Assembly (NCBI GenBank): GCA_964410025.1
Contig: CAYPFA010000002.1
Span: 15,653 to 79,652 of the forward strand
DNA length: 64,000 nt
Origin: Candidatus Woesearchaeota archaeon
GTDB taxonomy: Archaea; Nanobdellota; Nanobdellia; Pacearchaeales; GW2011-AR1
Reading direction: 5' to 3'
Below are positions 37,638 to 58,460 of the stretch, piece by piece. Every line of letters starts with the position of its first letter. Positions within the stretch are counted from its first letter, which is position 1. Below the pieces are notes generated by a model, which was not told the DNA's origin, ran no database searches, and saw nothing but the letters and a program-made list of their open reading frames with translations. A program made the position numbers and the translations under genes.

Positions 37638-38822
37638 ATGCTAACCATTATCCTCGCCATCACACTCGGAATCATCTTGGGAATAATTACAGGTTTAATT
37701 CCCGGACTTCACACAAACCTAATTTCCGCATTGACAATTACAATACTTCCATTCCTTTTACTTTATTTTTCACCATTCTCACTTGCAATCTTTATAGTCT
37801 CACTTTCTATAACAAACCTATTTATTGAATTTATTCCTTCAACCTATTTAGGCGCACCAGATGAAGACACGGCACTTTCAGTTTTACCAGGACATGAACT
37901 CCTATTAAAAGGAAAAGCCCATTTCGCAATTTTCCTCTCATCACTCGGAAGTCTAATTGGATTATTTATGGCAATTATTTTAGCACCTCTTTTATTTATT
38001 TCACTCAACACAATTTACCCATTTTTCGAAACAATGATGCCCTGGCTTTTAGTTTGGATTTGCATTCTTCTTCTATTGGACTCAAAACAACTCGCCCTTT
38101 CTCTAATTATTTTTATTCTTTCTGGGTTTTTAGGAATTGCCTCTCTAAACCTAACAATTAACCAACCACTTCTTCCACTCCTAACCGGGTTATTTGGAAT
38201 TTCTAGTATAATTTATTCCATCTCTCAAAAAACAAATATTCCTAATCAAGACACAACCCTTGATTTTATCGATAAAAAAACTTTCACAAAACCAATTCTA
38301 ATCAGCGCACTAATTTCCCCCATCTGCTCTTTTCTTCCCGGACTCGGAAGTTCCCAAGCAACCATAATTGGATCAAAAATTTCAAACCTAAAAAGAGAAC
38401 AATTTCTAATTTTAAATAGTACAATAAGTCCTATTCTAATGTCCTTGTCTTTTGTGACAGTTTTTCTAATAAATAAATCAAGAACAGGTTCAGCAAGCGC
38501 CATTTCAGAAATGATTCAACTTTCAAAAAATCAAATCTGGATTATCCTTGCACTTACAATAATCGTCGGACTTATTGTATTTTTTATCACACTTAAAATT
38601 TCAAAATCCATTGCAAATAAAATTCAAAACATAAATTATGAAAAGCTTTCATGGACCATTCTAATTTTCCTAATAATTATGACGGCAGTTATCTCTGGAC
38701 ACCTGGGGCTTTTAGTTTTAATAATATCTACATTTCTCGGACTTTCCTGCCAATATTACGGAATAAGAAAAGGTTTACTGATGGGTTGCTTGTTAATTCC
38801 GACTATTATTATATATTTATAA
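37638..38822 (+). CDS. TctA/DUF112-family polytopic membrane protein
   Basis: GLIPGLH and LPGLGSSQATI motifs; about 10 TM segments. Confidence 0.55.
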   Translation: MLTIILAITLGIILGIITGLIPGLHTNLISALTITILPFLLLYFSPFSLAIFIVSLSITNLFIEFIPSTYLGAPDEDTALSVLPGHELLLKGKAHFAIFLSSLGSLIGLFMAIILAPLLFISLNTIYPFFETMMPWLLVWICILLLLDSKQLALSLIIFILSGFLGIASLNLTINQPLLPLLTGLFGISSIIYSISQKTNIPNQDTTLDFIDKKTFTKPILISALISPICSFLPGLGSSQATIIGSKISNLKREQFLILNSTISPILMSLSFVTVFLINKSRTGSASAISEMIQLSKNQIWIILALTIIVGLIVFFITLKISKSIANKIQNINYEKLSWTILIFLIIMTAVISGHLGLLVLIISTFLGLSCQYYGIRKGLLMGCLLIPTIIIYL

Positions 38823-38867
38823 AAAATCATTCTAAATTTTTAATAGACTTATCTGTCAGATTTGAGA

Positions 38868-38967
38868 CACTCATAACTCCGTGCGAGCAGCACGGAAATA
38901 ATCAAAACAAATTTTTCATCAGAAAAATTTGACAATTCCCAACAAAAAACATTTCTTCCTGTTATAT
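38868..38967 (+). repeat. bipartite-hairpin intergenic element, copy 12
   Basis: CACTCATAACT; hairpin 1 CCGTGC-GAGCA-GCACGG (38879-38895); hairpin 2 CAAATTTTT/AAAAATTTG (38908-38931); ACAATTCCCAACAAAAAACATTTCTTCCTGTTATAT. The dnaE stop is at 38974. Confidence 0.9.
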
Positions 38968-38973
38968 CCACTC

Positions 38974-41900
38974 TTAAAACTCCAGCGGTCTACAAATTCC
39001 AATCTTCTTTGCAATAAATGCATCTCCGTATTCTTTATCTTTTACAAAAGTTCCCAATATTCTAAGCCCCATTCCTTCCTTAATTTCTTTATTACCAATT
39101 GTCTCCTTAAAAATTTTAGGAAAAACAGTGATCTTTAACTCTCCCTCTTTATTATAAATATTCATAAACGCCATTTCATCCGCCCCCTTTGTCATAATTT
39201 TACTATATCTTTTCACGAGTCCAAAAACATCTGTCTCTTTATCTTCCGCCAATTGACCATAAGGCATAAAAAATTTGGATTTTGATTCGGCATAAACATC
39301 AACAGGATGACCAGAAACACAAACTCCCAATAATTCTTGCTCGACCGCAAGTCTATGCTTAAGCGGCATCTGCGGCAAATCAGGATATTTCATCACACTA
39401 GCAATTCCTCCAAATAAATTCATTTGCTTATCTTTTTTCTGACTTTCTTTCTCAACTTTTTCATAGACAGCCAAAAGACTCGACCTATTTACTCCCAACT
39501 CATCAAAGCATCCCACTGAAATTAAATTATGACAAACTCTCTTATTTACCTTTGATAAATCCACCTTATTGATAAAATCCTGATAATTTTTATACGGTCT
39601 ATTTTCAATAATACTCTTAAGCGCCTCATCTCCAACATTTTTAATTCCCTTAAGACCTACACGAATAACTTTTTCGCCATCGATTTTTTCTACATTAAAA
39701 CTTTCCTGAGAACTATTAATATCTGGTGGCAAAATACTTATTCCTTCCTCTCTAGCTGCATTCAAATAAAAAGATAATTTATCTGGATCACCCACCGAAG
39801 AAGAAATTGTTGCCGCATAAAACTCAACTGGATAATGCATTTTCAAATATGCGGTTCTATATGAAATTAAAGCATAGGCCGCCGCATGACTTTTATTAAA
39901 AGAATATGAAGCGAATTTCACAATATCATCCCACAATTTATCTATATCTCTCTCTTGCATTCCAGAAACACTCAAACACCCATCCTTAAATTTTTTCTCC
40001 ATCTGCATCATTAGATCAAGTTTCTTCTTACCTATCGCTTTTCTTAAAGTATCCGACTCTCCACGAGTAAAGCCCGCCAAAACTCTAGATAACTGCATAA
40101 CTTGTTCCTGATAAACCATAATTCCATAGGTTGGTTCTAAAACTTCTCTAGCTTTTTCATGCGGATATTCAACACTCTCTCTTCCGTGTTTTCTATTCGC
40201 ATAAACTTCTAAATATTGCATCGGTCCCGGTCTATAAAGTGCCACAAGTGCAATAATGTCATCAAAGCAAGTTGGCTGAATTAACGACAAAGTTTTTCTC
40301 ATCCCCTCGCTTTCAATTTGAAAAACCCCAATGCTTTTTGAACGCCTCAGCATCTCATAAACATCGTCATCATCTCGAGGAATATTTTCCAGCCACTCAT
40401 CTGTTTTGCCAATCTGATCCAAAACTTTCTTAATAATATTTAAAGTTTCAAGTCCTAAAAAATCAAACTTCACTAGTCCATAAGTTTCAATATCTGGCCC
40501 TTCAATTTGCGTAACAACATCTCCGTCTCTCAAATATGTTGGAATATATTCCGTAATTGGTTTTTGCCCCCAAACAACTCCGCAAGCATGAACTCCCTTA
40601 TGACGAACACAACCCTCAAGTCTTCGCGCCGCCTTAAATATTTCAGAATATTTTTCCTCAAACTCTCTAAGTTGCCTAGCTTCTTCACTCAAATTCCCCT
40701 TCTGGTCTTTTGAATCAATCGAACCCTGAATAGAATCCTCTAAGACAAGTTTAGTGATTGCATTAGCCTCATCAAACGGAACCTTAAACACTCGCATAAC
40801 ATCTTTTAAAACAGCCTTCGCTCCCATCGTTCCAAAAGTTCCAATCATTGCAACTTTATCTTCACCATATTTCTTTCTAACATAATCAAGCACAATATCC
40901 TTATTTCCAAAATCAATATCAAAATCTGGCAGAGAAACTCTATCTGGATTCAAAAATCTCTCAAACAAAAGTCCTAAACTCAACGGTTCCAACTGTGTGA
41001 TTCCTAAACAGTATGCTACAATAGAACCTGCACCAGACCCCCTACCTGGTCCAACCTGACAGAATTTTTTCGCATGCGCAATAAAATCAGCTACAATTAA
41101 AAAATATGCCTCAAAACCCATCTTCTCAATAACTGAAAGTTCAAAATCCATTCTCTCAGAAGCTTCTTTATAATTTGTTTTTCCGCCATAATTCTTTTCC
41201 AGCCCCTCCGTGCACCACTTTCTTAAATATTCTTTGTGAGTCATTCCATCCGGCGCAACAAAATCTGGAAAAATAGATGTGCCCATTTTTAACTCCACAT
41301 TGCATCTGTCCGCAATCTCTTTTGTCACGTCAATATATTCTGGATTTTCTGGAAACAAATTTCTAACCTCCTCTTCCGACATAACATGATATCCTTCACC
41401 ACTGAAAGTCATTCTATTTGGATCACTCATTAAGGCATTTGTTTGAATAGCTAACATAATTTCATGAGCATGTGCATCTTCTTTTTTCAAATAATGACTA
41501 TCTGTAGTAGCAACAATTTTTAAACCATATTCCTTTGCAAATCTCTGATAAACCTCTCTGACAACAACCTCTTCTTTTATTTTATGATTTTGAACCTCTA
41601 AATAAAAATTCTCCTTACCAAATATATCTAAATATTCTTCCAATATTTTTCTTGCACTCGCCTCATCGCCAGCCATAATAGATCTAGAAACATCATTGGC
41701 AATACACGCACTCATGCAAATAATCCCCTCAGAATATTTTCGCAAAGTTTTCCTATCAATTCTCGCTCTATAATAAAATCCATCACTATTAGCAATTGAA
41801 ACAAGCTTTACCAAATTTTGATAACCAGCCAAATCTTTTGCCAACAAAACCAAGTGATAATCTTTGCCTTTTTGTCTACTCAGCATATCCTCAGTAATAT

Positions 41901-42102
41901 AAGCCTCAAAACCAAAAATTAATTTTATGCCAGCCTTTTTTGCCGCCTGATATTTCTTAATAATCGCACCCATGTTTCCATGATCAGTCACGGCAACCGC
42001 ATCCATACCCAATTTTTTCACGTGCTCAAAAAGCTCATCTACCTTTGTCGCTCCATCCAGAAGGCTATATTCTGTGTGTAAATGTAGATGTGTAAATGCC
42101 AT
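38974..42102 (-). CDS. dnaE: bacterial-type family C DNA polymerase, DNA polymerase III alpha subunit (DnaE)
   Basis: PHP domain HLHLHTEYSLLDGA; GPGRGSGAGSIVAYCLGIT; catalytic PDFDIDF; C-terminal OB-fold-like region; 1042 aa, uninterrupted. Confidence 0.9.
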   Translation of the reverse strand: MAFTHLHLHTEYSLLDGATKVDELFEHVKKLGMDAVAVTDHGNMGAIIKKYQAAKKAGIKLIFGFEAYITEDMLSRQKGKDYHLVLLAKDLAGYQNLVKLVSIANSDGFYYRARIDRKTLRKYSEGIICMSACIANDVSRSIMAGDEASARKILEEYLDIFGKENFYLEVQNHKIKEEVVVREVYQRFAKEYGLKIVATTDSHYLKKEDAHAHEIMLAIQTNALMSDPNRMTFSGEGYHVMSEEEVRNLFPENPEYIDVTKEIADRCNVELKMGTSIFPDFVAPDGMTHKEYLRKWCTEGLEKNYGGKTNYKEASERMDFELSVIEKMGFEAYFLIVADFIAHAKKFCQVGPGRGSGAGSIVAYCLGITQLEPLSLGLLFERFLNPDRVSLPDFDIDFGNKDIVLDYVRKKYGEDKVAMIGTFGTMGAKAVLKDVMRVFKVPFDEANAITKLVLEDSIQGSIDSKDQKGNLSEEARQLREFEEKYSEIFKAARRLEGCVRHKGVHACGVVWGQKPITEYIPTYLRDGDVVTQIEGPDIETYGLVKFDFLGLETLNIIKKVLDQIGKTDEWLENIPRDDDDVYEMLRRSKSIGVFQIESEGMRKTLSLIQPTCFDDIIALVALYRPGPMQYLEVYANRKHGRESVEYPHEKAREVLEPTYGIMVYQEQVMQLSRVLAGFTRGESDTLRKAIGKKKLDLMMQMEKKFKDGCLSVSGMQERDIDKLWDDIVKFASYSFNKSHAAAYALISYRTAYLKMHYPVEFYAATISSSVGDPDKLSFYLNAAREEGISILPPDINSSQESFNVEKIDGEKVIRVGLKGIKNVGDEALKSIIENRPYKNYQDFINKVDLSKVNKRVCHNLISVGCFDELGVNRSSLLAVYEKVEKESQKKDKQMNLFGGIASVMKYPDLPQMPLKHRLAVEQELLGVCVSGHPVDVYAESKSKFFMPYGQLAEDKETDVFGLVKRYSKIMTKGADEMAFMNIYNKEGELKITVFPKIFKETIGNKEIKEGMGLRILGTFVKDKEYGDAFIAKKIGICRPLEF

Positions 42103-42162
42103 GCCTCACTCCATCTCTTCCTGTTTATAATTATATCTTATCATCTAAGGGTGGTTAATTTT

Positions 42163-45100
42163 TCAAAATTCTCCGAGTCCGGTTTGTTTCATAGTCTCTT
42201 TCCCAAAAATACTCTCGATATATAATTTTGCCAAATTAAGTGATTGTATTGTATAATCAGGAATATGATATTTATCTGCCAACATTATTGCATGTTCTAA
42301 ATATTTTTTTATACTTCCTTCTGAAATTGTAAAAATAATTTTTCCTCCACACTTATAGCAAACCCCAGCTAAAGGTGGTCTCCTAAATTTTTGATTACAA
42401 CTAGAACATCTAAATTGTTGATGTGAAAACTTTCTCAAATTACCTCTAATGTCTCGGATAAAATGTCTCTCAATAATCAATCTTGCCACATCCGACGCAT
42501 CCACCGCTCTAATTTTTTCACACAAATCCATTTGTTGCTCCACCTTTTCTCTCATCGTGGGAAGAATTTTATAAGCAGAATTAAAAACACCTGCATTAAA
42601 ATTTCCCGTATCATGAGTAAATCCCATATTAACAAAAGTATCCTTCCCTTCTTTTAAAAGAGTTTTAACCGTAGTAATTTTTACCTCAGACGAATGCTTT
42701 CTCTGCTCGGCCAACTCATACACAGATAAAGGATATCTTGAACAAGTTTCAAAATCTAAAATCTGATCATCAACCTCTCCAGCCCTAATATGCGCGTTCA
42801 AGACAAGCGGCGCATCCTGAGTTCCTCCACGATGAGAAGGTAAAAACTTTCTAGAAAAATTAATCAGAACGTCCATTAACATCATAATTGCAGCCTCGTC
42901 TCCATCACAATCTCTCCTCATTGCCGCATGCATAAATGGACTAGCAACCAAACCCTGTAATTTACAAAAACCTATTATTCTCCCCACAACTCCCGCACAA
43001 TTATGCGGAGCCATACAAACCACCATCTGCCCCACCAAATCCTCTTTTGTTTTAAGATTATAAAATCTCGGAAGACCATAGGCCTTTTCTAATAATTCAT
43101 CAATAAAATTAGCTATATTAAAGAAAACATCATCAGCTCTTTCGTCTTTCGTATCTGGGCAACAAGGTAAAACAATATCATGCGGCATTAAAACTAAAAG
43201 CTGATCAGAACTAACCAGCTCCTTTCCATAAATATCTTCATCATATCCTAAATTTTTTAATTTTTCAACACTCACGCCAATCTCAATTGGCTTAAAATGA
43301 GTAAGTGGTATTTCTGTTGCATCATATCTTATCGTCCCATCTTTATTAACACAAAGATTATATTTAGCCCTTAAAATTCCCTTAATGGGATCTTCAAAAT
43401 CATGTCCCTCGCAGTTAGTTCCCCTAACTCCCTTAATTAAATTCGGTATTTCTCCAGAAGAATAATTTATTCGCTTAACTGAATTATTAAAAATATCTAA
43501 AATTTCAACCTTTCTATTTGAATAACCCCTACATTTCCCATGGACAATACACTCTTCATGCTCCTTATTTTCATTACACCTAACACAATAATATTTTTTT
43601 ACTGTCTCCTTGCCACAAGTTTCACAATTTTTTAAAATAGTTTCTTTCTTGCACTCATTACAGAAAAAAAGAGGAAATTCTGATTTTACATTTCCAATCC
43701 TCACTGCCTCATTTAAACTTCTAAATCTTCCGCCCTGCTCTCCAACGGGAAACAAAACATTTGGACTTCCAGTAAGTTTTCTAAGTTTTGCTTTTTCAGG
43801 CCTTCCCATTCTTGCACCAATAAAATCTCCTGCCTTATCCTTAATTAAATAACCTGAAAGAACATTAACAATTTCTAAAACATTTTTACCTTCATATTTT
43901 TCATCAATAATTTTTTTTATCTGCTCTTTAAAATTAAGGTTCTTATCTAATCCTAAGTTCATTAAAAAAAACTCTCCATTATCTATAACAACATTATCTA
44001 AAACGACCTCGTGTTCTACCCCTAATATTTCTAAAGTCCTCTTACTTTCTGCAAATTTTTCCCTAACGTGTTTGGAATATGGCAAAACTAAACTCCCCGT
44101 CCATTCAGCATTTTGTAGCCAATCTAAAAGAGGGGCAAAATTTTCTCTTGAAATCTGCGTCCAATAAAATATATAACTAGGATGCATAGGCACACTATAT
44201 TTTTTAGAAAAATCTTTAGCCTGATCAAAAGATATATTATATTCATCAACAGCAACCTCTTCCTTGATGGCTTCTATTTTTTTCTGGAGATCCAACTGCC
44301 ACCACTCTTCAACATAACCCGGCCGAGGCAACTCTGCATTTCTATTTATAACATCTCCAAGTGGAAACAAAATATCACCTAAATAAATTACCTCTTCAAT
44401 ATCTTTGTAAATTTTTCTAGCCTGCTCTGGATTTTGAATTTTTTTAACATTTCCATTTTTAAATCTAACAATTGGCCCATCAATTTTATCACAAGAGGTT
44501 AAGATACATCCCTTTGTGGGCTTTTCAATTTTTAATTGATTTCCACTAGATAAAAAATTATTTGAAATAAACATGGTTGCTGGATGTATAGATGTCGCAG
44601 AAAAACCCGCAACACGAGAACGCCCATATCTAAATCTAAAACTTCCCGAACGAGATGGGTGCCCAAAAATTGGTCGCCCCGCAACCAAATCTTTAATATA
44701 TGTAGCAGTAGTATCTTTAGTTCCTTTTTCTCGTTTTTTATGAAGTTCTATATAGCCATCCAAAAAACTCCAATCCGATAAAACAAAACCCTTAGATTTT
44801 ACAACCCTAATCATTCTAGAAATTTTAGCTGCCTTTTGAGCCAAGCCTTCCGCAAAAACCAAACACATACCTCCTCTAATAAAATTTGTTTCTATTCTTG
44901 GTAAGTCTTTAAAATTAGATACCTCTTTGTCTTCCGAAGGCTCACCAGAAATTTGAACAGGAATTGCCCTAGCTAAATAAATTAATTCTTCTTCCGTTGG
45001 TAAATACTGTAAATTATTAATTCTTTCATGATAATCTATAATCTCTGTAACAAATCTCTTAACTTCTTTTTCCGTAGGATCATATTTTGCAAAACCAAAC

Positions 45101-45621
45101 AACTCTCTTAAATAATCAGCAATAACTACAGAAAAAGCAGCACCAGTTCCACCTGCGCTTCTAACTGGCCCAGAATAATTAATAGCAAAATAATCTTTTC
45201 CGTCCTCTGTCTTATTTAATTTTATACCAGTAAATCCCTCTATTGGGGAAGAAACAACACCTAGCGTCATATATGCAAAGCCCACTCTTATTCCGGCATC
45301 AATAGCTTGGATTAAGGATTCAAACTTACAATATCTCTCTTTCGCAATCTCCTCGGCAATTTTCAAAGCAACACAAGGATCCAACTGGCCAAATTCTATT
45401 TCTAAATCTAAAATTCTTCTTGAAATCTTTTTTCCAATATCATCACCCATTTGAGGATAAATTGTAGAAATCAAACCAACCACCTTCTCAGCCAAAGACA
45501 TTGCAAGAGGAATTTCCACCTTCCCAACAGGATCAAAACCTTTTTTTCGAGCCATTTCTGCTACAATATATTCTTTTCTAACACCTAAAACAATTTCATC
45601 AAAATATTTTTCAGTTTCCAT
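42163..45621 (-). CDS. dp2: DNA polymerase D (Pol II) large subunit DP2
   Basis: 1152 aa; Cys clusters CNECKKETILKNCETCGKE and CSSCNQKFRRPPLAGVCYKCGG; CMAPHNCAGVVGRIIGF; no intein-sized insertion apparent from its length. Confidence 0.9.
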   Translation of the reverse strand: METEKYFDEIVLGVRKEYIVAEMARKKGFDPVGKVEIPLAMSLAEKVVGLISTIYPQMGDDIGKKISRRILDLEIEFGQLDPCVALKIAEEIAKERYCKFESLIQAIDAGIRVGFAYMTLGVVSSPIEGFTGIKLNKTEDGKDYFAINYSGPVRSAGGTGAAFSVVIADYLRELFGFAKYDPTEKEVKRFVTEIIDYHERINNLQYLPTEEELIYLARAIPVQISGEPSEDKEVSNFKDLPRIETNFIRGGMCLVFAEGLAQKAAKISRMIRVVKSKGFVLSDWSFLDGYIELHKKREKGTKDTTATYIKDLVAGRPIFGHPSRSGSFRFRYGRSRVAGFSATSIHPATMFISNNFLSSGNQLKIEKPTKGCILTSCDKIDGPIVRFKNGNVKKIQNPEQARKIYKDIEEVIYLGDILFPLGDVINRNAELPRPGYVEEWWQLDLQKKIEAIKEEVAVDEYNISFDQAKDFSKKYSVPMHPSYIFYWTQISRENFAPLLDWLQNAEWTGSLVLPYSKHVREKFAESKRTLEILGVEHEVVLDNVVIDNGEFFLMNLGLDKNLNFKEQIKKIIDEKYEGKNVLEIVNVLSGYLIKDKAGDFIGARMGRPEKAKLRKLTGSPNVLFPVGEQGGRFRSLNEAVRIGNVKSEFPLFFCNECKKETILKNCETCGKETVKKYYCVRCNENKEHEECIVHGKCRGYSNRKVEILDIFNNSVKRINYSSGEIPNLIKGVRGTNCEGHDFEDPIKGILRAKYNLCVNKDGTIRYDATEIPLTHFKPIEIGVSVEKLKNLGYDEDIYGKELVSSDQLLVLMPHDIVLPCCPDTKDERADDVFFNIANFIDELLEKAYGLPRFYNLKTKEDLVGQMVVCMAPHNCAGVVGRIIGFCKLQGLVASPFMHAAMRRDCDGDEAAIMMLMDVLINFSRKFLPSHRGGTQDAPLVLNAHIRAGEVDDQILDFETCSRYPLSVYELAEQRKHSSEVKITTVKTLLKEGKDTFVNMGFTHDTGNFNAGVFNSAYKILPTMREKVEQQMDLCEKIRAVDASDVARLIIERHFIRDIRGNLRKFSHQQFRCSSCNQKFRRPPLAGVCYKCGGKIIFTISEGSIKKYLEHAIMLADKYHIPDYTIQSLNLAKLYIESIFGKETMKQTGLGEF

Positions 45622-47173
45622 TATTACTCTCCTTTTTTTTATTACTAAAATCCATTATTTTTACTTCTCTAGTTTTTAAGTTAAAAATAGGAACTTTACA
45701 TGGATCTGGATTATTTCCTACTTTTTCCTCAAAGGGTGTAATTGACTGCCAGCAAGAACTAGCTATAAGTAAAATATTATTATAAACAGAAACCTCTGGT
45801 CTATGTAAATCACCAGTAGCCACAATATCTGGAATAATATCAATAACTAATGGGTCATTCTCACTAGGGACATAATCACAACTTCCATGAATAGGTGCAA
45901 GATGTCGTCTTTTAAGCAATTCTTTAACGATGGTAGTTGGAGAATTATGCCCAAAATTTATTCTAATATCACTCATTTCTTCAATAATACCATGAAAACT
46001 TGCACCATGATACATTAATATTTTAAAACCACCCTCAATTTCCACAGTACATGGATTAGTAGCTAAAAAAACATTTTCCATTTTATGTAATTCTGGCGCC
46101 CAATTTATACCAATTGCCGGCTGTGGCTCACCAACCCAAACAGCATCATGCTGCCCTGGAGAAATAATTATTTTAACATCTTTTCTTATAAGATTAAGTA
46201 AATCTGAAAGTTTTTTATATTGCTTTGTTGTTTCTAATATATTTAAAAGCCTCTCCTGATCTGGGAAAATACCAATTCCATCAACATTATCTCCAACTAA
46301 AAAAAGATATTTAACTTTTTTAGCAATATTTTTTTGTTCTTCATCGCCATCCTCTCCATTAAGCCATTTGATAAATTTTAAAAAACTATCTTCTAAAAAC
46401 ATTTTTGAACCAATATGAATATCTGAAGTAAAGGCCACTAAAACCTCTTTGTCGTATTTTCTCTTTTCTATTAAAAATGCATCTGGAAAAAACACCTCAT
46501 TTGCGAACAACATCTCTTTTGTTCCAGAAACACTAAAGGCAACAATATCATCAGGAAGAATGTCTTTGCATTTTTCATATAAATCTTCTCTATTTGCATT
46601 AATAAGAACCCTAGTTCTTCCTGTCATATCTTCCACCTCAAACATAAGATTTTTATTTTTTGTTGTTCTTTTATCAGCTATAGAAACAATAATTTGCTGA
46701 GCATCTCTTTCACCTGTCAATCTTCTTAATGATTTTAAATTTCCTAAATTTTTGGTTTGTAAAATATTTTTTAACTTCTCATATCTACTCCTATAGTGTT
46801 TAACAAAATCCTGAACTTCTATTTTTTTAGGAGAAATTATACTAGAAGATAATATTTTTATATCACTATTACTTAAATTTACTCGAGAACCAAAAGAAAC
46901 ATCTTCCATTCCCACAATACATCCTATATTTTTAAAAAATAAACCTAGTTGCTCTTGTTTATTATCTTTAATTAGACTTTTTTTTATTTCCTCAATATAA
47001 TTATTAAAAATAACTTTTGTAATAACTCTCTCTTTTATTTTTAAACTCAATAAGATATTAATTATTTTTTTAAAAAAATCCTCATCTAAACTAGAAAGCG
47101 CCTCAAGAATGTCTTTATCTAATAAAAACCCATTCTGCATACATAACTTTAATATTTGTTTTTTAATTTCCAT
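45611..47173 (-). CDS. dp1: DNA polymerase D small subunit DP1 (exonuclease)
   Basis: Metallophosphoesterase motifs FTSDIHIGS, VGDNVDG, PGQHD. Overlaps dp2 by 11 nt. Confidence 0.9.
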   Translation of the reverse strand: MEIKKQILKLCMQNGFLLDKDILEALSSLDEDFFKKIINILLSLKIKERVITKVIFNNYIEEIKKSLIKDNKQEQLGLFFKNIGCIVGMEDVSFGSRVNLSNSDIKILSSSIISPKKIEVQDFVKHYRSRYEKLKNILQTKNLGNLKSLRRLTGERDAQQIIVSIADKRTTKNKNLMFEVEDMTGRTRVLINANREDLYEKCKDILPDDIVAFSVSGTKEMLFANEVFFPDAFLIEKRKYDKEVLVAFTSDIHIGSKMFLEDSFLKFIKWLNGEDGDEEQKNIAKKVKYLFLVGDNVDGIGIFPDQERLLNILETTKQYKKLSDLLNLIRKDVKIIISPGQHDAVWVGEPQPAIGINWAPELHKMENVFLATNPCTVEIEGGFKILMYHGASFHGIIEEMSDIRINFGHNSPTTIVKELLKRRHLAPIHGSCDYVPSENDPLVIDIIPDIVATGDLHRPEVSVYNNILLIASSCWQSITPFEEKVGNNPDPCKVPIFNLKTREVKIMDFSNKKKESNNGN

Positions 47174-47222: not shown

Positions 47223-48443
47223 TTACAATCCTAACGATTCAACTAAAATTGCCTCTACTTTCTCCAAAATATTTGAAGGAATAGAAAGCTTAACTTCCCT
47301 TGTTCTTCCGTGCCTCCCTTTTGAGATAACTCTCGCATTTATTAGCCCAAGCATATCTATTTCACCAATAATATCTGAAACTCTCCTTTGGGTAAGAAAT
47401 TCTATTTTTATCTTATTACAAACATCTTGATAATAATTATAAATATCTCCTGTAAAAAAATTATTTGATTCATTTCCGTCTTTTCCTTCCTTCTTTGTTA
47501 ATTGTAATATAGAATATAAAACCACTTGAAATTGTGTCGGTTCGGTTTCAACTATGTCTAATATTTTATCTTTTTCCATTTTCTGATTAGCCTGATCAAT
47601 ATAAATCTCATCTATTCTTAATTTTCCATCTCTTTCAGCAAGTTCACCTGCTATCCTAAGTAAATCTAAAGCTCTTCTTGCATCACCATGTTCTCTAGCT
47701 GCAAAAGCTGCACATTTTGAAATAACGGCCTCATCGACAGCATTTTCTTTAAATGCCTGCTTACACCTCTCATTTAAAATATCTTTTAACTGTACTGCAT
47801 TATATGGTGGAAATATCACTTCTTCTTCTCCAAGAGAACTTTTTACACGCGGATCTATATTTTCTAAAAAAGTAACATCATTAGAAATCCCTATAATTGA
47901 TATTTGGGCCTTACTTAACTCAGAATTTAACCTCGTAAGAGAATATAAAAAACTATCATCTATTTTTTTAACAGCTTGATCAATTTCATCAAATATAATA
48001 ACAACTAATTGTTTTTTAGAATCTATTAAATCAATAAATATTGAATAAACCTTATCGGTTGGAAGACCTGTTGCTGGAACACTTCCTCCAAGTTCTGCAA
48101 TTAATGCTGCTAAAATCCTATATTCCGTATCGGCAATTTTTCTTAATTTACAATTAATATATTCTATTCTTATATCCACACCTATTTCTTTAGCTCTTTT
48201 AAGCAACTCTTCCCTAACATATTGAACTGAAAGTGTTTTTCCAGTACCTGTTTTACCATAAACAAAAAGATTACTAGTTCTTTCTCCTCTTAAAATAGGA
48301 GCCATCATTGAAGCTACTTGCTCAATTTGTTTATCTCTATGGGGAATAGATTGAGGTGTATAATTTGTTTGTAAAACACTCTTATCTTTAAATAAAGAAT
48401 TTTTAATAGCTGAATCAAATATATGTGAAATTTGTGTTCCCAT
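47223..48443 (-). CDS. cdc6: Orc1/Cdc6 replication initiator
   Basis: Walker A GKTGTGKT; Walker B IIFDEID; C-terminal winged-helix-like region. Confidence 0.9.
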   Translation of the reverse strand: MGTQISHIFDSAIKNSLFKDKSVLQTNYTPQSIPHRDKQIEQVASMMAPILRGERTSNLFVYGKTGTGKTLSVQYVREELLKRAKEIGVDIRIEYINCKLRKIADTEYRILAALIAELGGSVPATGLPTDKVYSIFIDLIDSKKQLVVIIFDEIDQAVKKIDDSFLYSLTRLNSELSKAQISIIGISNDVTFLENIDPRVKSSLGEEEVIFPPYNAVQLKDILNERCKQAFKENAVDEAVISKCAAFAAREHGDARRALDLLRIAGELAERDGKLRIDEIYIDQANQKMEKDKILDIVETEPTQFQVVLYSILQLTKKEGKDGNESNNFFTGDIYNYYQDVCNKIKIEFLTQRRVSDIIGEIDMLGLINARVISKGRHGRTREVKLSIPSNILEKVEAILVESLGL

Positions 48444-48934
48444 TTTTTAAACCTCTAAAACAAGAAATGAATAAAGACTATTTAAATATTCATATATCGG
48501 AAAACATATATCTATCACCTCTATTTCCTTTAGAAAAATTATTTTAAATTATCTTTATTTAATTAATTAATAATTATTTTTACCGATGATAATCATTATT
48601 AAACACAAACACTCCCTCACACCTCTATTTCCTTTCCAGAAGAAATAGAGTTAAATAAAAAAATTTATTATACTATATACTATAATGTATATAATATAAT
48701 ATATATAATATAATATATAAAAGCTTATAAATAAAAAATAAACATTTTTGATTTTCTTTTTTGCTTTATAAATCTTATTCCATTTGAAATTAAGGGGTGA
48801 GTGTTTATAAAAAATACATCAAATATGTATTTTAAGTTGACTTTTTTAGAGAAAATTTTAATTAAATTATAAAAATAAGATATATTATACACGACTATAC
48901 AAAGGTTTATAAATAAATTTACAATATTTTTATC
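48444..48934. other. candidate replication origin (oriC): repeated ORB-like boxes flanking an AT-only unwinding region
   Basis: CACCTCTATTTCCTTT at 48516-48531 and 48620-48635; dyad CTCTATTTC/GAAATAGAG at 48623-48650 containing TTCCAGAAGAAA; AAACACTC at 48607 with inverted GAGTGTTT at about 48799; (TA)-rich tract about 48650-48790. Lies directly upstream of orc1/cdc6. Confidence 0.6.
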
Positions 48935-49189
48935 ATGGACAAAAGACCCTTCAAAAGTTTATTGGGAAAGCAAGTGGTGACAAAAGAAGGTAAGAGGCTA
49001 GGAATAGCTAAAGACTTAACTTTTGAAACAAAAACAGGAGAATTAATTCACTTGGTCATACGAGATTTAACTCCATACACAGCGAATCTTTCTTTGGAAA
49101 GAACAAAAGATAAAGAGGCATTACTTCCTTTTAATTCTTTAATAGCTGTTGGAGATTTTATAGTCGTTTCAGAAGAAGACCTAGTTTAA
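48935..49189 (+). CDS. PRC-barrel domain protein
   Basis: LLGKQVVTKEGKRLGIAKDLTFETKTGELIHLVI. Confidence 0.65.
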   Translation: MDKRPFKSLLGKQVVTKEGKRLGIAKDLTFETKTGELIHLVIRDLTPYTANLSLERTKDKEALLPFNSLIAVGDFIVVSEEDLV

Positions 49190-49223
49190 TTCTACAAAAG
49201 TTTTAAATCATCAAACTAATAAA

Positions 49224-49713: not shown

Positions 49714-49735
49714 CGAATAATTTGGTTTAAGAAAT

Positions 49736-49816
49736 GCCCACATGGCACAATGGTACTGCAATGGTCTCGAACACCATACCTTTACTGGTTTCCCAGTTCG
49801 ATTCTGGGTGTGGGCG
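49736..49816 (+). tRNA. tRNA-Ser (anticodon CGA)
   Basis: Hand-folded: acceptor GCCCACA/TGTGGGC plus G73; D stem GCA/TGC with GG loop; anticodon stem ATGGT/ACCAT with loop CTCGAAC; long variable arm; T arm CCCAG-TTCGATT-CTGGG. Confidence 0.85.
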
Positions 49817-49848
49817 TTAAGTAAAAAAATTAAACCAAATTATGAGTA

Positions 49849-49901
49849 GGTCTCGAAAACCGTGCCCTAACAGGTCTCCAGGTTTAATTCCTAGTATGAA
49901 C
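49849..49901 (+). pseudogene. degenerate tRNA-Ser 3' fragment (anticodon loop to 3' end)
   Basis: GGTCTCGAAAACC...CCAGGTTTAATTCCTAG aligns to the 3' two-thirds of the tRNA, but the acceptor strand is destroyed. Confidence 0.5.
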
Positions 49902-49980
49902 ATTTTACTTGGCTTTTAAGATAAAACCAACTAATTAATGAAAGGCAAACAAAACGTAGTTTCAAAACAAATCACAAGCA

Positions 49981-50034
49981 GGTCTCGAACACCATGCCTT
50001 TACTTTTTTCCCAGTTCGATTCTGGATCTGGGCG
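49981..50034 (+). pseudogene. tRNA-Ser 3' fragment, 49/54 identical to positions 49763-49816
   Basis: GGTCTCGAACACCATGCCTTTACTTTTTTCCCAGTTCGATTCTGGATCTGGGCG. The five mismatches break the variable-arm, T-stem and acceptor pairing. Confidence 0.75.
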
Positions 50035-50050
50035 TTTTTAATTATCTAAA

Positions 50051-53370: not shown

Positions 53371-53466
53371 CTAAGAATTCAATTAAATAAATACCTACGA
53401 ATATTTAAATATTGCTATATTTTTAGAAACCGATTAACTTTTAAAGCCCTATTCATAATTAATTAT

Positions 53467-53778
53467 ATGCCAAGAATATCAAAAGAAAAACAAGAAAAAA
53501 TTCAAGAGCAAGTTTTATTTTTTCTCTATTCAATTTTTCCAAAACAAGTTTTTACGGCAGATATAGCAAAAGAAATTGCAAGAGATGAGGAATTTATTAA
53601 GGTTTTGATGTTAGAATTAGAAAAAAATAGCCTAGTTGTTAAGGTAACAAAGAATTCTGAAGGTGTTAATTATGAACGAAGACTCCGTTGGAGAATTTCA
53701 AATAATGCCTATGAAATTTATAATCAACATCAAAATAAATCTTCTCAATTGGAAATACAAGAAAAACTTGAAGGATAA
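53467..53778 (+). CDS. small winged-helix-like DNA-binding protein
   Basis: FTADIAKEIARDEEFIKVLMLELEKNSLVVKV... has an HTH-plus-wing pattern. Confidence 0.5.
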   Translation: MPRISKEKQEKIQEQVLFFLYSIFPKQVFTADIAKEIARDEEFIKVLMLELEKNSLVVKVTKNSEGVNYERRLRWRISNNAYEIYNQHQNKSSQLEIQEKLEG

Positions 53779-53845
53779 AAGAATAACTCTGAAGTATATC
53801 TTAGAGAATAAATAACATTAAAAAGAAACAGGGACTTAATTTTTT

Positions 53846-54520
53846 ATGGATCCAATTAAAGAAGCTTTTCAGAAAATAAAAGAAGAAATGTTGGAAATTA
53901 GAAAAGAAATTTCCGCTTTAAAACAAGAAATTTCTTTAAAGCCAAACTTATCAGACTTAGGTGGTTCTTCGGCAAATCCGTCAATTATTCCAACACAAAC
54001 CCATCATCCAACAGACACTCCCGCACAAACTCCGGCAGTTCCACAGGAAATAGGGGGGTTAAAACAATCAAGTTTCATAATCTCCACAGGAAATAGGGGG
54101 GGTCCAACAAACACATCCACAGACAGTCAAACAAACCAACAAACCAGCAATTTCAACATTTCTCCTCGAGAAACACTATTAGATAGGTCCATAAACCTTC
54201 ACGAAACTCTCTCTAGTGTAGATAATATTAAGCGAGAATTAAGGCTTAAGTTTAAGAGATTAACTACTCAAGAAATGCTCGTTTTTTCAACCCTCTATAG
54301 TTTAGAATCTCAGGGTTTTCAGGAAATTACCTATAAAATCCTTGCAAACAATCTTAATCTCAGCGAATCTTCAATTAGAGATTATATATCTAAAATCTCA
54401 GCCAAAGGAATACCCGTTTCCAAGACTAGGTTGAATAATAAACTTATAGTATTGAATATCTCTCAAGATCTGCAAAAAATAGCTTCCCTAGCCACCATAA
54501 TGCGTTTGAGAGAGCTTTAA
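53846..54520 (+). CDS. coiled-coil / P,T,Q-rich linker / C-terminal HTH protein
   Basis: N-terminal heptads; C-terminal LTTQEMLVFSTLYSLESQGFQEITYKILANNLNLSESSIRDYISKI. Contains the duplicated poly-G 18-mer. Confidence 0.6.
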   Translation: MDPIKEAFQKIKEEMLEIRKEISALKQEISLKPNLSDLGGSSANPSIIPTQTHHPTDTPAQTPAVPQEIGGLKQSSFIISTGNRGGPTNTSTDSQTNQQTSNFNISPRETLLDRSINLHETLSSVDNIKRELRLKFKRLTTQEMLVFSTLYSLESQGFQEITYKILANNLNLSESSIRDYISKISAKGIPVSKTRLNNKLIVLNISQDLQKIASLATIMRLREL

Positions 54521-54819
54521 TTTTATAAGTAAATATCATGTTTTTACGCTTTAAAATATAAGTCATTCGGCTAAACGAATAGTTATTACAATCCTCTCTT
54601 TTTGACCTTGAATCCAACATATTCAAGCCAGTCAATTATTTTTTCTTTGATTTTTAACGTTGTTTTTGAGTTTTATCAGTAGATTTTTAATCTAAACTCA
54701 CTTTTGCGCCAAAAATAATTTTTTTAAGTTATTATAAAAACTCTCACTTAAATCCTTTGTATTGTTATATTCACAAACTCTCCTTTTTTTTCTCACTTTT
54801 CCAGTAAATTTTATGCTTT

Positions 54820-55422
54820 TCATTGTTCTACCTGTTTTCTTCTTTGTAGTTTAACTCTCACTTTTCCATTTTTGAGCATAATTTGCTTCATTTCTTCAGG
54901 AATATACAATCTTTTCTTGCCATTTGCCTCTCTAGCCTCCATTATTAATCCTTCACTCTTCTGCCTTATGGTATTAATCTGTCCCCTAACGGTGCTTTTA
55001 TCTTTTCCTAATAAAACAGCTAAATCTTCATAGCTTAGTTTTTGATCAGAGTTTGCAAGCGCCCAAATTACAGCTCGCTCCATAAGTGATAAATTGTCTA
55101 AAATAGTTGTTTGAACAGCCGTTTGCACGCCTTCTTGAACACTTACAACACTTGTTTGTTTATTAGAATTTGCCTGCGGTTGTTTGGACAGCTTAGAACC
55201 AAACAGTGAAATAAAATTTTTCATCTCTTCCATTTCACTCTGTACTTCAAAAAGTTGTTTCTTTACATCATCTATTTCAGTGTCTTGGACATGTTCTTTA
55301 GCGTCGAAATGCTTTATCCATTGACTAACTTTACCAAAATCTTGTTTCACAGAATCAAAAGACTTTTGTATTTCAAGCCTCATTTGTTCATTCTCATCTC
55401 TTTTTTTAAACCAACCAAACAT
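54820..55422 (-). CDS. coiled-coil / Q,T-rich linker / C-terminal HTH protein (same architecture as 53846-54520)
   Basis: LSLMERAVIWALANSDQKLSYEDLAVLLGKDKSTVRGQINTIRQK. Confidence 0.6.
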   Translation of the reverse strand: MFGWFKKRDENEQMRLEIQKSFDSVKQDFGKVSQWIKHFDAKEHVQDTEIDDVKKQLFEVQSEMEEMKNFISLFGSKLSKQPQANSNKQTSVVSVQEGVQTAVQTTILDNLSLMERAVIWALANSDQKLSYEDLAVLLGKDKSTVRGQINTIRQKSEGLIMEAREANGKKRLYIPEEMKQIMLKNGKVRVKLQRRKQVEQ

Positions 55423-55803
55423 CTTAATATTGTTTAAACAACCATCTTTATAAACCTTTCGTTTTTTTATCGTTTTTACATCTAAAATAGGTTAAAAATA
55501 GACAAATTTAGCTGTTGTTTAAAACAAAAACATTATATTTTATACTCGATAAAACACATTAAATCTTGTTTATAACTAAACAACTGATAAACATCAATTT
55601 AAACAGTCAATTCTGTCAAACAACACCCATATAATACATAAAAATGAGTCAAAAAAGCACATATTTTATAAACAGCTGTTTGGAGTTGTTTGCTTGTTTG
55701 TTAAACAATGAAGATCTATTAACTAACACCTGTTTAAACAGGTGTTTATCGTCGGTAAATTTTAATTAAAAACATTTATAAACAACAACCAACTGAATAA
55801 AAT
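55423..55803. promoter_or_regulatory. palindrome-rich control region (TGTTTAAACA-type sites)
   Basis: TGTTTAAACA at 55431-55440; 20-nt perfect palindrome ACACCTGTTTAAACAGGTGT at 55726-55745; AAACAGCTGTTT at 55670-55681; further TGTTTA/TAAACA half-sites throughout. Confidence 0.6.
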
Positions 55804-56106
55804 ATGGGTGTGATGCGTAATATTTCAATATCTTTAGGTTGTTCTTTGGCTTATTTTTTCTCATCTTTTTTCGTAAACATAATTCCATGTCAAATGGCGC
55901 CAAATGTTCCAAATCCGATTTATTCATGGGCACTTTGCAATATAAATCCAGACCAAATTTCATCTTTCGGGATACAGAAGCTTTACTTTGGCATAACCAC
56001 AAAGTTAGCTGAAACATACTTTATTTCGTTAGTTTTGATTTTCGCAATATTTATGATAATTTTATCTCTATTTTTTAGAAAATCAAAAAAAATAAAAGAT
56101 GAGTGA
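55804..56106 (+). CDS. doubtful hypothetical ORF with C-terminal TM
   Basis: Track ORF. A competing minus-strand ORF (55766-56017) covers the same DNA. Confidence 0.25.
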   Translation: MGVMRNISISLGCSLAYFFSSFFVNIIPCQMAPNVPNPIYSWALCNINPDQISSFGIQKLYFGITTKLAETYFISLVLIFAIFMIILSLFFRKSKKIKDE

Positions 56107-56117
56107 AAGGAGGTTTA

Positions 56118-56327
56118 ATGGCAAAAATACAGGAAAAAAGCAAGTTTAATTTTTCAGCTTTCCTTGCGTGGATGGTTGGAATCTTAGTATCTTTAGCAGT
56201 AGGTTCCGGAATGATCGATAAGATACTTACAATTCCATTTGTTCCAAATATAATAACAGCTATCGCAGGTTGGATTGTAGTAATCGGCGCAATAATTTCA
56301 GTAATCGCTGCAATTTTTAACAGATAA
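56118..56327 (+). CDS. small two-TM membrane protein (69 aa)
   Basis: GGAGGT lies 5 nt upstream of ATG 56118. MAKIQEKSKFNFSAFLAWMVGILVSLAVG.... Confidence 0.6.
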   Translation: MAKIQEKSKFNFSAFLAWMVGILVSLAVGSGMIDKILTIPFVPNIITAIAGWIVVIGAIISVIAAIFNR

Positions 56328-56539
56328 ACAATCAATCATTTTATTTTTTATTTTTATTTTTAAGTAAAAAGAATTATAGTTTGCATCCAGTGTATTTTTA
56401 GCCGCAGGCTGTTAATTAAGTCGTATGCAAAGGTAACCTTAGTGCATAAAACCGCGGTAACTGAAAAATCTGTGAGCGCGAAGGCAAAATATAGCATAAT
56501 CACATAAATATTTATAAACAAAACTCATAATAAAATCAA

Positions 56540-56935
56540 ATGAACAAAATAACCATTTCAGGATTTGCCCAAGGCGGAGGATCTTTTTATTTAGAATATA
56601 AAGATAGGCAAAACAGTGAAATCATAAGAGTATTTAGGTTGGAAGATACAGAATCATCGCCAGTTTGGTGTTCAGTCGATACAAAATTTTCAAACGGACA
56701 AAGAGAACATTTTTCTGAAGAAATGCCATTCCCAAGAAGAAATCCATTCTTACCAAGAGCACTTTATCTTCAACCTCTCGAATATCTTGCGGCAAGAGAA
56801 TATGCAGAAACAATTGTTAAAACCAATCCTGGAGAATTTAAAGTTGATGACGAAATAGAGAAAAGGTTTGAATATGATATAAAGAAATCATTGCTTTCTG
56901 AGTTAAATGGGATAATTAAACAAAAAAAGAATTAA
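56540..56935 (+). CDS. hypothetical protein, gene 1 of the four-gene operon
   Basis: Track ORF; no motif recognised. Confidence 0.6.
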   Translation: MNKITISGFAQGGGSFYLEYKDRQNSEIIRVFRLEDTESSPVWCSVDTKFSNGQREHFSEEMPFPRRNPFLPRALYLQPLEYLAAREYAETIVKTNPGEFKVDDEIEKRFEYDIKKSLLSELNGIIKQKKN

Positions 56936-56936
56936 C

Positions 56937-57281: not shown

Positions 57282-57282
57282 A

Positions 57283-57786: not shown

Positions 57787-57787
57787 A

Positions 57788-58126: not shown

Positions 58127-58152
58127 AATTTTAATTCAAAATCACTCCAAAG

Positions 58153-58178
58153 GTTCGCACAAGATACATTGTGCGAAC
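58153..58178 (+). terminator. 9-bp perfect hairpin downstream of the operon
   Basis: GTTCGCACA-AGATACAT-TGTGCGAAC, 27 nt after the stop at 58126. Confidence 0.35.
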
Positions 58179-58437: not shown

Positions 58438-58460
58438 AATTAAACCAGGCTTTTTAGGCT

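Follow-up and report, generated by a model that had tools for sequence, protein, structure and literature searches.

Introduction

The division between the family C replicases of bacteria and the family B and D replicases of archaea and eukaryotes features in textbooks as an argument that DNA replication arose twice, independently. This report concerns dnaE, a gene for a family C DNA polymerase (DNA polymerase III (Pol III) alpha-like) that occupies positions 38974..42102 on the minus strand of a 64,000-nucleotide (nt) stretch of contig CAYPFA010000002.1, from the Candidatus Woesearchaeota archaeon assembly GCA_964410025.1 (the whole stretch is referred to below as the window). The gene stands at the end of a cluster formed by the initiator gene orc1 and by dp1 and dp2, which encode the small and the large, catalytic subunit of the family D polymerase (PolD). 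With a probability of roughly 0.55, it is taken here to encode an active, self-proofreading family C polymerase whose gene entered the lineage a single time, probably from a virus, by insertion between dp2 and a TctA-family transporter gene, and was retained as a partner of PolD.

Such an arrangement has already been noted in brief, a point on which the first-pass annotation of the window had been unsure. DNA polymerase III (fam03494) was verified on DPANN contigs for three sequences, and in two Pacearchaeota its gene adjoins those of both DNA polymerase II (PolD) subunits, small and large; the authors considered a horizontal acquisition likely, perhaps with phages involved, and included phage sequences in the tree (Castelle et al., 2021, Front Microbiol 12:660052; PMC8204110). 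The window locus represents the same phenomenon, with a DnaE on a DPANN contig, next to PolD genes, in an archaeal clade that carries the signature HACGVVWG. It is a further member of this little-studied group, to which family-wide evidence, above all the fusions described below, is added here. The published account is one paragraph without residue-level, distribution or functional analysis, and the fusions, the missing C-terminal domain (CTD), the conserved PHP site and clamp motif, the dp2/TctA insertion site and the absence from most relatives are not in it. The Pacearchaeota sequences are termed ‘highly divergent’ there, whereas the window DnaE shares about 40-45% identity with ordinary bacterial DnaE1 and scores above the NCBIfam DnaE cutoff. 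The text supplements of PMC8204110 contain no clamp or Pol III terms, a paper on sliding-clamp evolution (PMC8357120) is silent on DPANN beta clamps, and literature searches returned no paper describing a DP2::DnaE fusion.

Among bacterial enzymes, a conserved PHP site and a good clamp motif mark DnaE1 and PolC, the PHP metal site of DnaE1 being conserved outside the alpha-, beta- and gamma-proteobacteria, while 91% of DnaE1 proteins have a tau-binding CTD, which DnaE2 and the inferred ancestral form typically lack (Timinskas et al., 2014; PMC3919608). By sequence as well as by fold, the window DnaE is matched best by DnaE1 with PHP proofreading, as known from Thermus aquaticus (2hpi) and Mycobacterium tuberculosis (7pu7/5lew). 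Both have the PHP-to-OB domain order, the catalytic triad, the nine PHP ligands and the clamp motif; the archaeal protein differs in lacking the tau-binding CTD, in being encoded in an archaeal genome behind PolD with no beta-clamp, clamp-loader or epsilon genes in sight, and in a clade substitution that reads HACGVVWG where bacteria have HAAGVVI. A working analogy for a main replicase with a second DnaE-type polymerase is provided by PolC and DnaE3 in Bacillus subtilis and by PolC and DnaE1 in clostridia; in B. subtilis, the protein that binds single-stranded DNA (SSB), not tau, holds DnaE3 at the fork (PMC3919608). In the window the partner is instead the unrelated family D polymerase, and the PHP domain and clamp motif, respectively degenerate and weak in DnaE3, are both intact.

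The phage DnaE proteins (PHROG 405; represented here by contig L020 and by proteins P0122 and P0123) are the nearest phylogenetic neighbours of the archaeal ones. They are likewise short (P0213, encoded on L020, has 1066 amino acids (aa)), lack the CTD and keep the PHP and catalytic residues, but they are only 42-51% identical, are without HACGVVWG, and sit in viral replication modules with ribonucleotide reductase, SSB and UvsX rather than beside PolD. With DnaE2/ImuC, the window DnaE shares the missing CTD, accessory status and a patchy distribution; it differs in its score with the DnaE2 model (607 against a cutoff of 939), in its intact PHP domain and canonical clamp motif, and in having no imuA or imuB alongside.

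Domain Organization and Functional Residues of DnaE

The dnaE gene is a single uninterrupted ATG-to-stop open reading frame (ORF) of 1042 aa, in agreement with the first-pass annotation, which had called it intact and had pointed to the motifs HLHLHTEYSLLDGA, GPGRGSGAGSIVAYCLGIT and PDFDIDF, all of them found in the translation. Its Pfam domains, PHP (PF02811), DNA_pol3_alpha (PF07733), DNA_pol3_finger (PF17657) and HHH_6 (PF14579), are detected with E values from 1e-25 to 5e-83, far above gathering scores, and together with an OB fold taken from the structural model they give the order PHP, palm/thumb, fingers, (HhH)2 and OB. The PHP domain lies at 41584..42090 (minus strand, as are all features of the gene; aa 5-173 from Pfam and the T. 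aquaticus DnaE alignment, with ligands D201 and H203 just past its end), the palm/thumb core at 40453..41232 (aa 291-550, with D395 and D397 in PDFDIDF, D547 in VKFDFLGL, and HACGVVWG at aa 505-512), the fingers domain at 39973..40446 (aa 553-710; E 2.4e-58) and the (HhH)2 duplex-DNA/clamp-proximal domain at 39478..39744 (aa 787-875; E 1.2e-25). An internal clamp-binding-type motif, QMNLFG, follows at 39409..39426 (aa 893-898). The C-terminal OB fold, at 38992..39237 (about aa 956-1037), is drawn from a block of beta strands in the AlphaFold2 model and from fold matches to the LysRS anticodon domain, which is an OB fold; the OB domain PF01336 is annotated on many members of the family.

Family models place the protein with DnaE. 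The NCBIfam DnaE equivalog NF004226/PRK05673 scores 1150.9 bits and is passed (cutoff 1002), while the model for the error-prone DnaE2 (NF004225) gives 607.3 bits, under its cutoff of 939, and both PolC models fail (NF001688, 201 bits against 873; TIGR01405, 189 bits against 1043). The DnaQ-like exonuclease insert that marks PolC is absent from the protein. The top Protein Data Bank (PDB) matches are the Pol III alpha subunits of T. aquaticus (2hpi, E 8.8e-233), M. tuberculosis and Escherichia coli, with E values between 1e-233 and 1e-198. The AlphaFold2 model has a mean predicted local distance difference test (pLDDT) score of 75.5 and a predicted template modelling (TM) score of 0.59, and its best fold match is again 2hpi (TM 0.68). 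The description ‘full-length’ in the first-pass annotation holds for the core from PHP to OB, but the tau-binding domain of roughly 100 aa at the C-terminus of a typical bacterial DnaE1 is missing. The match stops at position 1029 of 1146 in the family profile and at 1110 of 1220 in T. aquaticus DnaE, and the chain ends five residues past the OB fold, whose strands reach residue 1037 of 1042 in the model.

The residues on which polymerase and exonuclease function would depend were followed through an alignment of 110 full-length DnaE relatives. The catalytic aspartates D395, D397 and D547, which align with D463, D465 and D618 of the T. aquaticus enzyme, are kept in 110/110. All nine PHP metal ligands (H7, H9, D16, H41, E66, H83, C133, D201 and H203, identified by alignment to T. 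aquaticus DnaE) are present and, N-terminal gaps aside, are invariant wherever the column holds a residue, so that the PHP domain is a predicted 3′-5′ proofreading exonuclease with an apparently competent metal site. The clamp motif is conserved to a similar degree (Q893 and L896 in 110/110, G898 in 109/110, F897 in 108/110), with Q, L and F each present in 58/58 sequences of the archaeal clade, and QMNLF (893-897) and Qx[SD]LF, the beta-clamp motif of bacteria, occupy identical columns of the alignment. The segment that carries it, aa 888-932 between (HhH)2 and OB, has pLDDT below 50 in the AlphaFold2 model and is probably a flexible linker. A C-terminal PCNA-interacting protein (PIP) box was considered as well and rejected, as the DnaE C-termini are not conserved. 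Judged by its residues, the window protein reads as a DnaE1-like core without the tau handle, because the PHP site and clamp motif are kept and the CTD is gone.

Fusion of DP2 to DnaE

The second-best 50%-identity representative of the family, P0121, is a protein of 2207 aa in which the N-terminal, central and catalytic domains of DP2 are followed by a complete DnaE. Such fusions form eight 90%-identity clusters (P0121 and P0290-P0296) of 2153-2367 aa that are mutually 58-78% identical and come from four GTDB species, in NCBI, JGI, ENA and Logan assemblies with contigs of up to 382 kb. Their context is that of the window, with a PRC-domain gene, orc1, dp1 and then dp2::dnaE, and in one fusion locus TctA, a GTPase gene and the diphthamide synthase gene lie further on. 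In the nucleotide sequences of L017 (10001-16783), L104, L110 and L122, no stop interrupts the passage from the DP2 frame into DnaE, whereas in 17 other adjacent dp2-dnaE pairs, including that of the window (L001), the dp2 frame stops and the genes are unfused. The window's dp2 is closed by a stop codon at 42163-42165, and 60 nt further on dnaE starts with an ATG of its own.

The fusions keep the whole of DP2, including its C-terminal zinc module and a Q-x-x-L remnant of the PIP-like motif. In place of the dp2-dnaE spacer there is an in-frame, low-complexity linker rich in E, K and V, roughly 50-230 aa long, after which DnaE begins from its first PHP residues. All fusion proteins retain RRDCDGDE of DP2 and the three aspartates, nine PHP ligands and QxTLF of DnaE. 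They are monophyletic (100/100 neighbour-joining bootstraps), and their sister group is the unfused clade to which the window gene belongs. That the fusion has outlasted so much divergence without losing either catalytic centre is ‘Rosetta stone’ evidence of the classic kind, from which DP2 and DnaE would be expected to act together.

Phylogeny and Origin of the Archaeal DnaE Family

The window DnaE belongs to a sizeable family, as more than 120 distinct 90%-identity clusters share at least 60% identity with it. Many relatives are already publicly annotated as ‘DNA polymerase III subunit alpha [Candidatus Pacearchaeota archaeon]’, and others carry the names Woesearchaeota or Nanoarchaeota. Among 1.84 billion 50%-identity representatives, the family collapses to P0081 and the fusion P0121, followed by the intein-bearing P0122 (51%) and P0123 (47%); beyond these comes a plateau of ordinary bacterial DnaE proteins of 1140-1190 aa at 40-45% identity. 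In a neighbour-joining tree of 209 sequences (1000 well-occupied columns, 100 bootstraps), the archaeal DnaEs are monophyletic in 100/100 replicates, with the window protein among them; a placement of this kind had been proposed as a check in the first-pass annotation. P0122 and P0123 join next (100/100), and then P0213 (81/100). The signature HACGVVWG occurs in 58/58 sequences of the archaeal clade and in 0/149 bacterial representatives. When its back-translated pattern was sought in GTDB species-representative genomes, 50 stretches were obtained, of which 41 belong to archaeal metagenome-assembled genomes (MAGs) with a DnaE match and the other nine are chance matches in bacteria without DnaE similarity. 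The 41 MAGs are labelled Woesearchaeota, Pacearchaeota, Nanoarchaeota or ‘archaeon’, some evidently wrongly.

The three nearest outgroups all lie in virus-like contexts and all keep the PHP and catalytic residues. P0122 (L019) and P0123 (L018) are encoded on contigs of dense, short, same-strand ORFs, nearly all without Pfam or PHROG matches; the exceptions are a sugar-modifying gene block at one end of L018 and a single PHROG match in L019. P0213 is encoded on L020, part of a 217-kb phage-like contig with genes for ribonucleotide reductase, SSB, UvsX/RecA, a Holliday-junction resolvase, ThyX, a UvrD helicase, a tRNA nucleotidyltransferase and a lytic transglycosylase, and most of these replication and other genes match PHROG families. 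A viral source of the archaeal dnaE is the best guess, because all three nearest outgroups lie on virus-like contigs. The term ‘bacterial-type’, applied to the protein in the first-pass annotation, is thus apt in that this is a family C DnaE, but ‘phage-type’ may describe it better, given where its nearest non-archaeal relatives are found. A search for a close phage donor among GenBank phages (tblastn) reached no more than 43% identity, the matches all being to faecal contigs listed as ‘Bacteriophage sp.’ and carrying no annotation.

Inteins recur in this setting. Besides those of P0122 and P0123, they are present in the archaeal-clade DnaEs P0047 and P0074, and most Pacearchaeota DP2 proteins bear one (giving about 1600-1700 aa), the window DP2 being intein-free.

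Residence in the Archaeal Genome

The dnaE gene is a resident archaeal gene, as had been argued from its composition and downstream repeat in the first-pass annotation. An identical DnaE with an identical dp1-dp2-dnaE junction is found on seven contigs from at least three independent samples (JGI 3300045131, JGI 3300044987 and Logan SRR12261226) and two assembly pipelines. The flanking genes are archaeal, encoding ribosomal proteins L21e, S13, S4, S11, L13 and S9, Rpb4, an RpoD-like subunit, EF-1beta, RadA, XPF/Hef, diphthamide synthase and an archaeal prepilin peptidase. The base composition of dnaE (GC 0.359, with 0.282 at third codon positions) lies within the range of its neighbours, and its relative synonymous codon usage, for which a comparison had been suggested earlier, correlates with that of the other genes at 0.90, also within that range. 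The order orc1-dp1-dp2-dnaE-TctA recurs in relatives at 60-82% identity.

Several MAGs with orc1-dp1-dp2(-dnaE) carry names that fit poorly (‘Methanococcoides sp. SA1’, ‘uncultured Methanosarcinales’, ‘Patescibacteria group bacterium’, ‘Bacillota bacterium’; JABKBV010000002.1, CAYZMD01, CAZMDB01, CAYONI01, CAYSDY01, JAHYJW01 and DATKUW01), and these are likely mis-binned or mislabelled.

Distribution, Insertion Site and Selection

A scan anchored on DP2 covered 80 loci from related species with DP2 proteins 48-65% identical to that of the window. Nearly all have orc1-dp1-dp2, and where downstream DNA is available TctA directly follows dp2 on the opposite strand; dnaE lies between the two in one locus of the 80 (L032), and two of the 80 assemblies are among the 41 signature-positive genomes. 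The gene is therefore an insertion between dp2 and TctA that is missing from most relatives, because those without DnaE have TctA directly after dp2. At the scale of the order, DnaE is accessory, a second polymerase and neither a universal replacement of the archaeal replicase nor the sole replicase, because closely related genomes do without it. A single gain followed by vertical inheritance without loss is rejected, as the DnaE carriers are not monophyletic in the DP2 tree.

Where dnaE is present, dp2 is often its neighbour. Of the 41 GTDB-species DnaE loci, 20 (three in-frame fusions included) have dp2 immediately upstream of dnaE and in the same orientation, as do L015 and L016. Small ORFs of 98-164 aa without a Pfam match are found between the two genes, on the same strand, in seven genomes (L004:9437-9766, L032:13605-13901, L105, L108, L117, L140 and L142). 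A conserved small accessory gene at this position was considered and rejected, since the seven ORFs are not mutually homologous; the dp2-dnaE junction itself appears to be an insertion hot spot.

All DnaE-carrying relatives that were compared show higher identity in DnaE than in DP2 or DP1, the values for DnaE, DP2 and DP1 being 82, 71 and 55% in L004, 69, 57 and 50% in L005, 70, 61 and 48% in L015, and 67, 56 and 40% in L016. Between the window and L004, Nei-Gojobori ratios of nonsynonymous to synonymous substitution (dN/dS) are 0.07 for dnaE, 0.09 for orc1, 0.16 for dp2 and 0.36 for dp1, values that count as rank-order evidence only, with dS saturated at 0.9-1.8. These comparisons place dnaE under strong purifying selection.

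Proposed Role and Alternative Explanations

It is very probable that DnaE is a functional resident polymerase, and there is about an even chance that it serves as a replisome partner of PolD. In the scenario we favour, an ancestor within the Pacearchaeota/Woesearchaeota radiation (GTDB Nanoarchaeota) would have gained dnaE in a single event, probably from a virus, and the gene would have entered the locus between dp2 and TctA, where the origin-proximal orc1-dp1-dp2 cluster ends. Its product would work alongside PolD in DNA synthesis at the replication fork or close to it; PolD is known in Thermococcus to dock on GINS/CMG through DP1 (PMC9023282). Tethering through DP2 would take over the missing tau contact, non-covalently in the window genome and through the flexible 50-230-aa linker in the fused subclade. 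The PHP domain would give DnaE a 3′-5′ proofreading activity of its own, as in T. aquaticus and M. tuberculosis DnaE1, and the conserved QxxLF would recruit a sliding clamp. The host PCNA is the simplest candidate for that clamp, because no bacterial clamp or loader gene is present in the window or the fetched flanks. Labour might be divided between PolD and DnaE by strand, or between bulk and primer-proximal synthesis, or DnaE might substitute for PolB. Tentatively, and with somewhat less than even odds, PolD and DnaE could thus form a hybrid archaeal replicase, in which a CMG-docked family D enzyme is joined by a virus-derived, self-proofreading family C module that reaches the archaeal PCNA through its retained bacterial-type QxxLF.

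Several observations weigh against this scenario. The viral origin is drawn from neighbour-joining trees of the 150 best-scoring representatives and from impressions of gene context, and four scans of IMG/VR (two with single proteins, one with the signature and one with an alignment) returned nothing above 39%. The gene is absent from 78 of the 80 related species genomes sampled, so that the wider lineage can do without it. The carriers make up three well-supported clades and a singleton, interleaved with non-carriers, in the DP2 tree; this scatter implies repeated loss or locus-level transfer between related lineages and fits an accessory or mobile gene as well. Linkage to dp2 is not universal, because the divergent carriers L107, L113 and L115 (DnaE 51-59% identical) have no dp2 within 3.7-4.9 kb upstream. 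Furthermore, QMNLFG is a beta motif of the bacterial type, without the aromatic pair that a canonical PIP box has.

The patchiness of the gene invites other explanations. It might act in repair, gap filling or damage tolerance away from the fork, in the manner of DnaE2/ImuC or of the accessory PolBs of archaea, and such a role would suit an accessory gene missing from most related genomes whose product lacks the CTD as DnaE2 does (PMC3919608), in a window that also encodes an Lhr-type helicase, an SbcD-like phosphoesterase, RadA and XPF/Hef. We consider this unlikely, if worth keeping in view, since the protein passes the DnaE model (1151 bits against 1002) and fails that of DnaE2 (607 against 939), its PHP site is fully conserved, a trait tied to DnaE1 and PolC and not to DnaE2 or DnaE3 (PMC3919608), imuA/imuB-like neighbours are absent from every locus examined, the sequence is very strongly constrained, and a conserved covalent fusion to the catalytic subunit of the replicase is hard to square with an independent repair enzyme. 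Displacement of PolB by DnaE as the second polymerase of a PolD-based replisome would be a special case of the partnership with PolD, and a decidedly improbable one. Most PolD-bearing archaea also have PolB, and polymerase turnover does occur in the lineage, given the unusual, bacterially derived PolB group B7 reported from Woesearchaeota and Pacearchaeota (PMC7544198); the PolB motif YGDTDS was not found in 2.1 Mb of fetched archaeal loci, a result that is uninformative because all of them surround the same genomic region.

The gene might also be left over from a virus or a selfish element, or serve as replicase to an element that is integrated or episomal, hitch-hiking without a function for the host. 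The virus-like outgroup contigs, the patchy distribution among related genomes, the inteins of some family members (P0047 and P0074), the unrelated small ORFs between dp2 and dnaE in several genomes and the phage-like genes mentioned nearby by Castelle et al. (PMC8204110) would all be in keeping with it. Even so, this reading is very improbable: the window, L015, L016 and L017 have no other viral gene beside dnaE, which dp2 and TctA flank directly, codon usage is fully ameliorated, dN/dS is low (0.07), the functional residues are invariant over a clade spanning 60-100% identity, and a fusion to DP2 in which neither active site has been lost implies that selection acts on what the two do together. 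An assembly chimera or bin contamination, in which a bacterial or phage fragment has been joined to an archaeal contig, might be suspected because family C polymerases are otherwise bacterial or phage enzymes and several carrier MAGs are wrongly labelled (e.g., ‘Methanococcoides sp. SA1’ and ‘uncultured Methanosarcinales’). Since seven contigs, drawn from two assembly pipelines and at least three samples, share identical junctions, synteny is kept in dozens of species, in-frame fusions with an archaeal gene exist, and composition and codon usage are host-like, that explanation is effectively refuted and its probability is close to nil.

If a partnership of DnaE with PolD is correct, this would be the first archaeal replisome with a family C enzyme, and the fusions would be the first natural single polypeptides of two active replicative polymerases from unrelated families. 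An archaeal lineage keeps a family C polymerase under strong selection in an origin-proximal replicase operon, in some cases fused to the catalytic subunit of PolD, which shows that both replication machineries can combine in one cell and probably in one complex. The system is clonable and lends itself to asking whether a bacterial/phage-type polymerase can work with PCNA and CMG, how a second polymerase is tethered without tau, and how replisome parts are swapped by way of viruses.

The Replicase Cluster and Its Flanks

The four genes of the cluster share one strand, as the first-pass annotation had it, and this is the minus strand. The initiator gene orc1/cdc6 (47223..48443) encodes 406 aa and scores 502.3 bits with NCBIfam PRK00411.1-3 (cutoff 501) and 421.9 bits with TIGR02928. 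It is followed by dp1 (45611..47173; 520 aa; Pfam DNA_pol_E_B; PDB 6knb_A, E 7e-75) and dp2 (42163..45621; 1152 aa), whose product has the three DP2 Pfam domains (N-terminal, central and catalytic), matches PDB 6hms_B (E 8e-247), contains the catalytic RRDCDGDE, and ends in KQTGLGEF, which reads as PIP-like. The spacer between dp2 and dnaE (42103..42162, minus strand) measures 60 nt; the first-pass annotation had placed the dnaE start 61 nt downstream of the dp2 stop. The spacer holds an A/T-rich, TATA-like stretch ATATAATTATAAA and GGAGTGAGG just ahead of the ATG, a candidate promoter and a candidate Shine-Dalgarno sequence assigned by eye. Upstream of orc1, the intergenic region 48444..49223 is A/T-rich (GC about 0.27) with short direct and inverted repeats, among them CACCTCTATTTCCTTT at 48511-48538 and 48615-48642 with an inverted copy at 48633-48650, and is a candidate replication origin.

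On the other side, the TctA-family gene (37638..38822, plus strand; Pfam PF01970) converges on dnaE. One copy of an intergenic element whose hairpin reads CCGTGCGAGCAGCACGG lies between the two stops, at 38865..38942, which bears out the earlier report of such an element 3′ of dnaE. Its 27-nt core occurs in four copies with at most three mismatches, against zero expected, and looser copies also appear in the repeat listing. The sites, at 10209, 11831, 21036, 24926, 29766 and 38865, extend over about 40-75 nt each and are built of CCGTGCGAGCAGCACGG, then AAATAATCAAA, then an A/T-rich tail. The element looks like a shared terminator or a repetitive extragenic palindromic (REP)-like element. As had been remarked before, the beta clamp and clamp loader are absent from view: no such Pfam family, nor epsilon, was found on the genes from about 8 to 64 kb, and neither the 64-kb window nor the fetched flanks of relatives contain bacterial clamp, clamp-loader or epsilon genes.

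The phosphodiesterase motifs of the window DP1 are variant (GQHD for GNHD in motif III, GDLH for GHxH in motif V), those of Thermococcus DP1 being canonical. Inactivation of the DP1 exonuclease as the cause of the dnaE gain is rejected: across the 80 loci, the GQHD and G[DE]xH variant is also present in about 27 DnaE-less genomes, and the variant predates DnaE because it is common to these. PolD proofreading may be altered or lost in lineages with the variant. Heavier erosion of DP1 is confined to three DnaE carriers, L015 (ANQH), L016 (GLHD, H to Y in motif IV, GGRH) and the fusion genome L017 (GN in motif II, GDRD, GNLH), which hints, with n = 3, at a relaxed constraint on PolD proofreading once a PHP-proofreading partner is present.

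PolD genes are also found in other combinations. Proteins P0299, P0302, P0304, P0307, P0313, P0321 and P0385 join DP2 to PF06941, and P0397 joins DP2 to an HD domain. A 695-aa gene at the DP1 position of L016 (4138-6225) carries NT5C, and an HD gene lies between orc1 and dp1 in L015 (3914-4495). This repeated association of PolD subunits or the operon with 5′-deoxynucleotidase (NT5C) or HD-phosphohydrolase suggests a coupling of enzymes of the dNTP pool to the replicase.

Other Features of the Window

An integrated element may occupy about 53400-61600, where short ORFs without Pfam matches (also seen in L014) are accompanied by a tyrosine integrase (60641-61552); just past the window, beyond the integrase block, lie a serine recombinase gene and a Fic gene. 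This block may correspond to the phage-like genes that Castelle et al. mentioned near the polymerase. A tRNA-Ser(CGA) gene at 49735-49817 is followed by two more copies of its 3′ half, at 49849-49904 (68%) and 49981-50036 (91%), a partial duplication of the kind that integrating elements would leave. At the start of the window, a minus-strand ORF of more than 3092 aa (1-9276) runs off the edge; it is rich in G, S and N, has internal repeats of 81-87 nt and longer and an N-terminal hydrophobic segment, and probably encodes a giant surface protein. Finally, a perfect 81-nt tandem duplication (two 100%-identical copies) is present at 17994-18155, just upstream of a 724-aa ORF on the minus strand (18217-20391).

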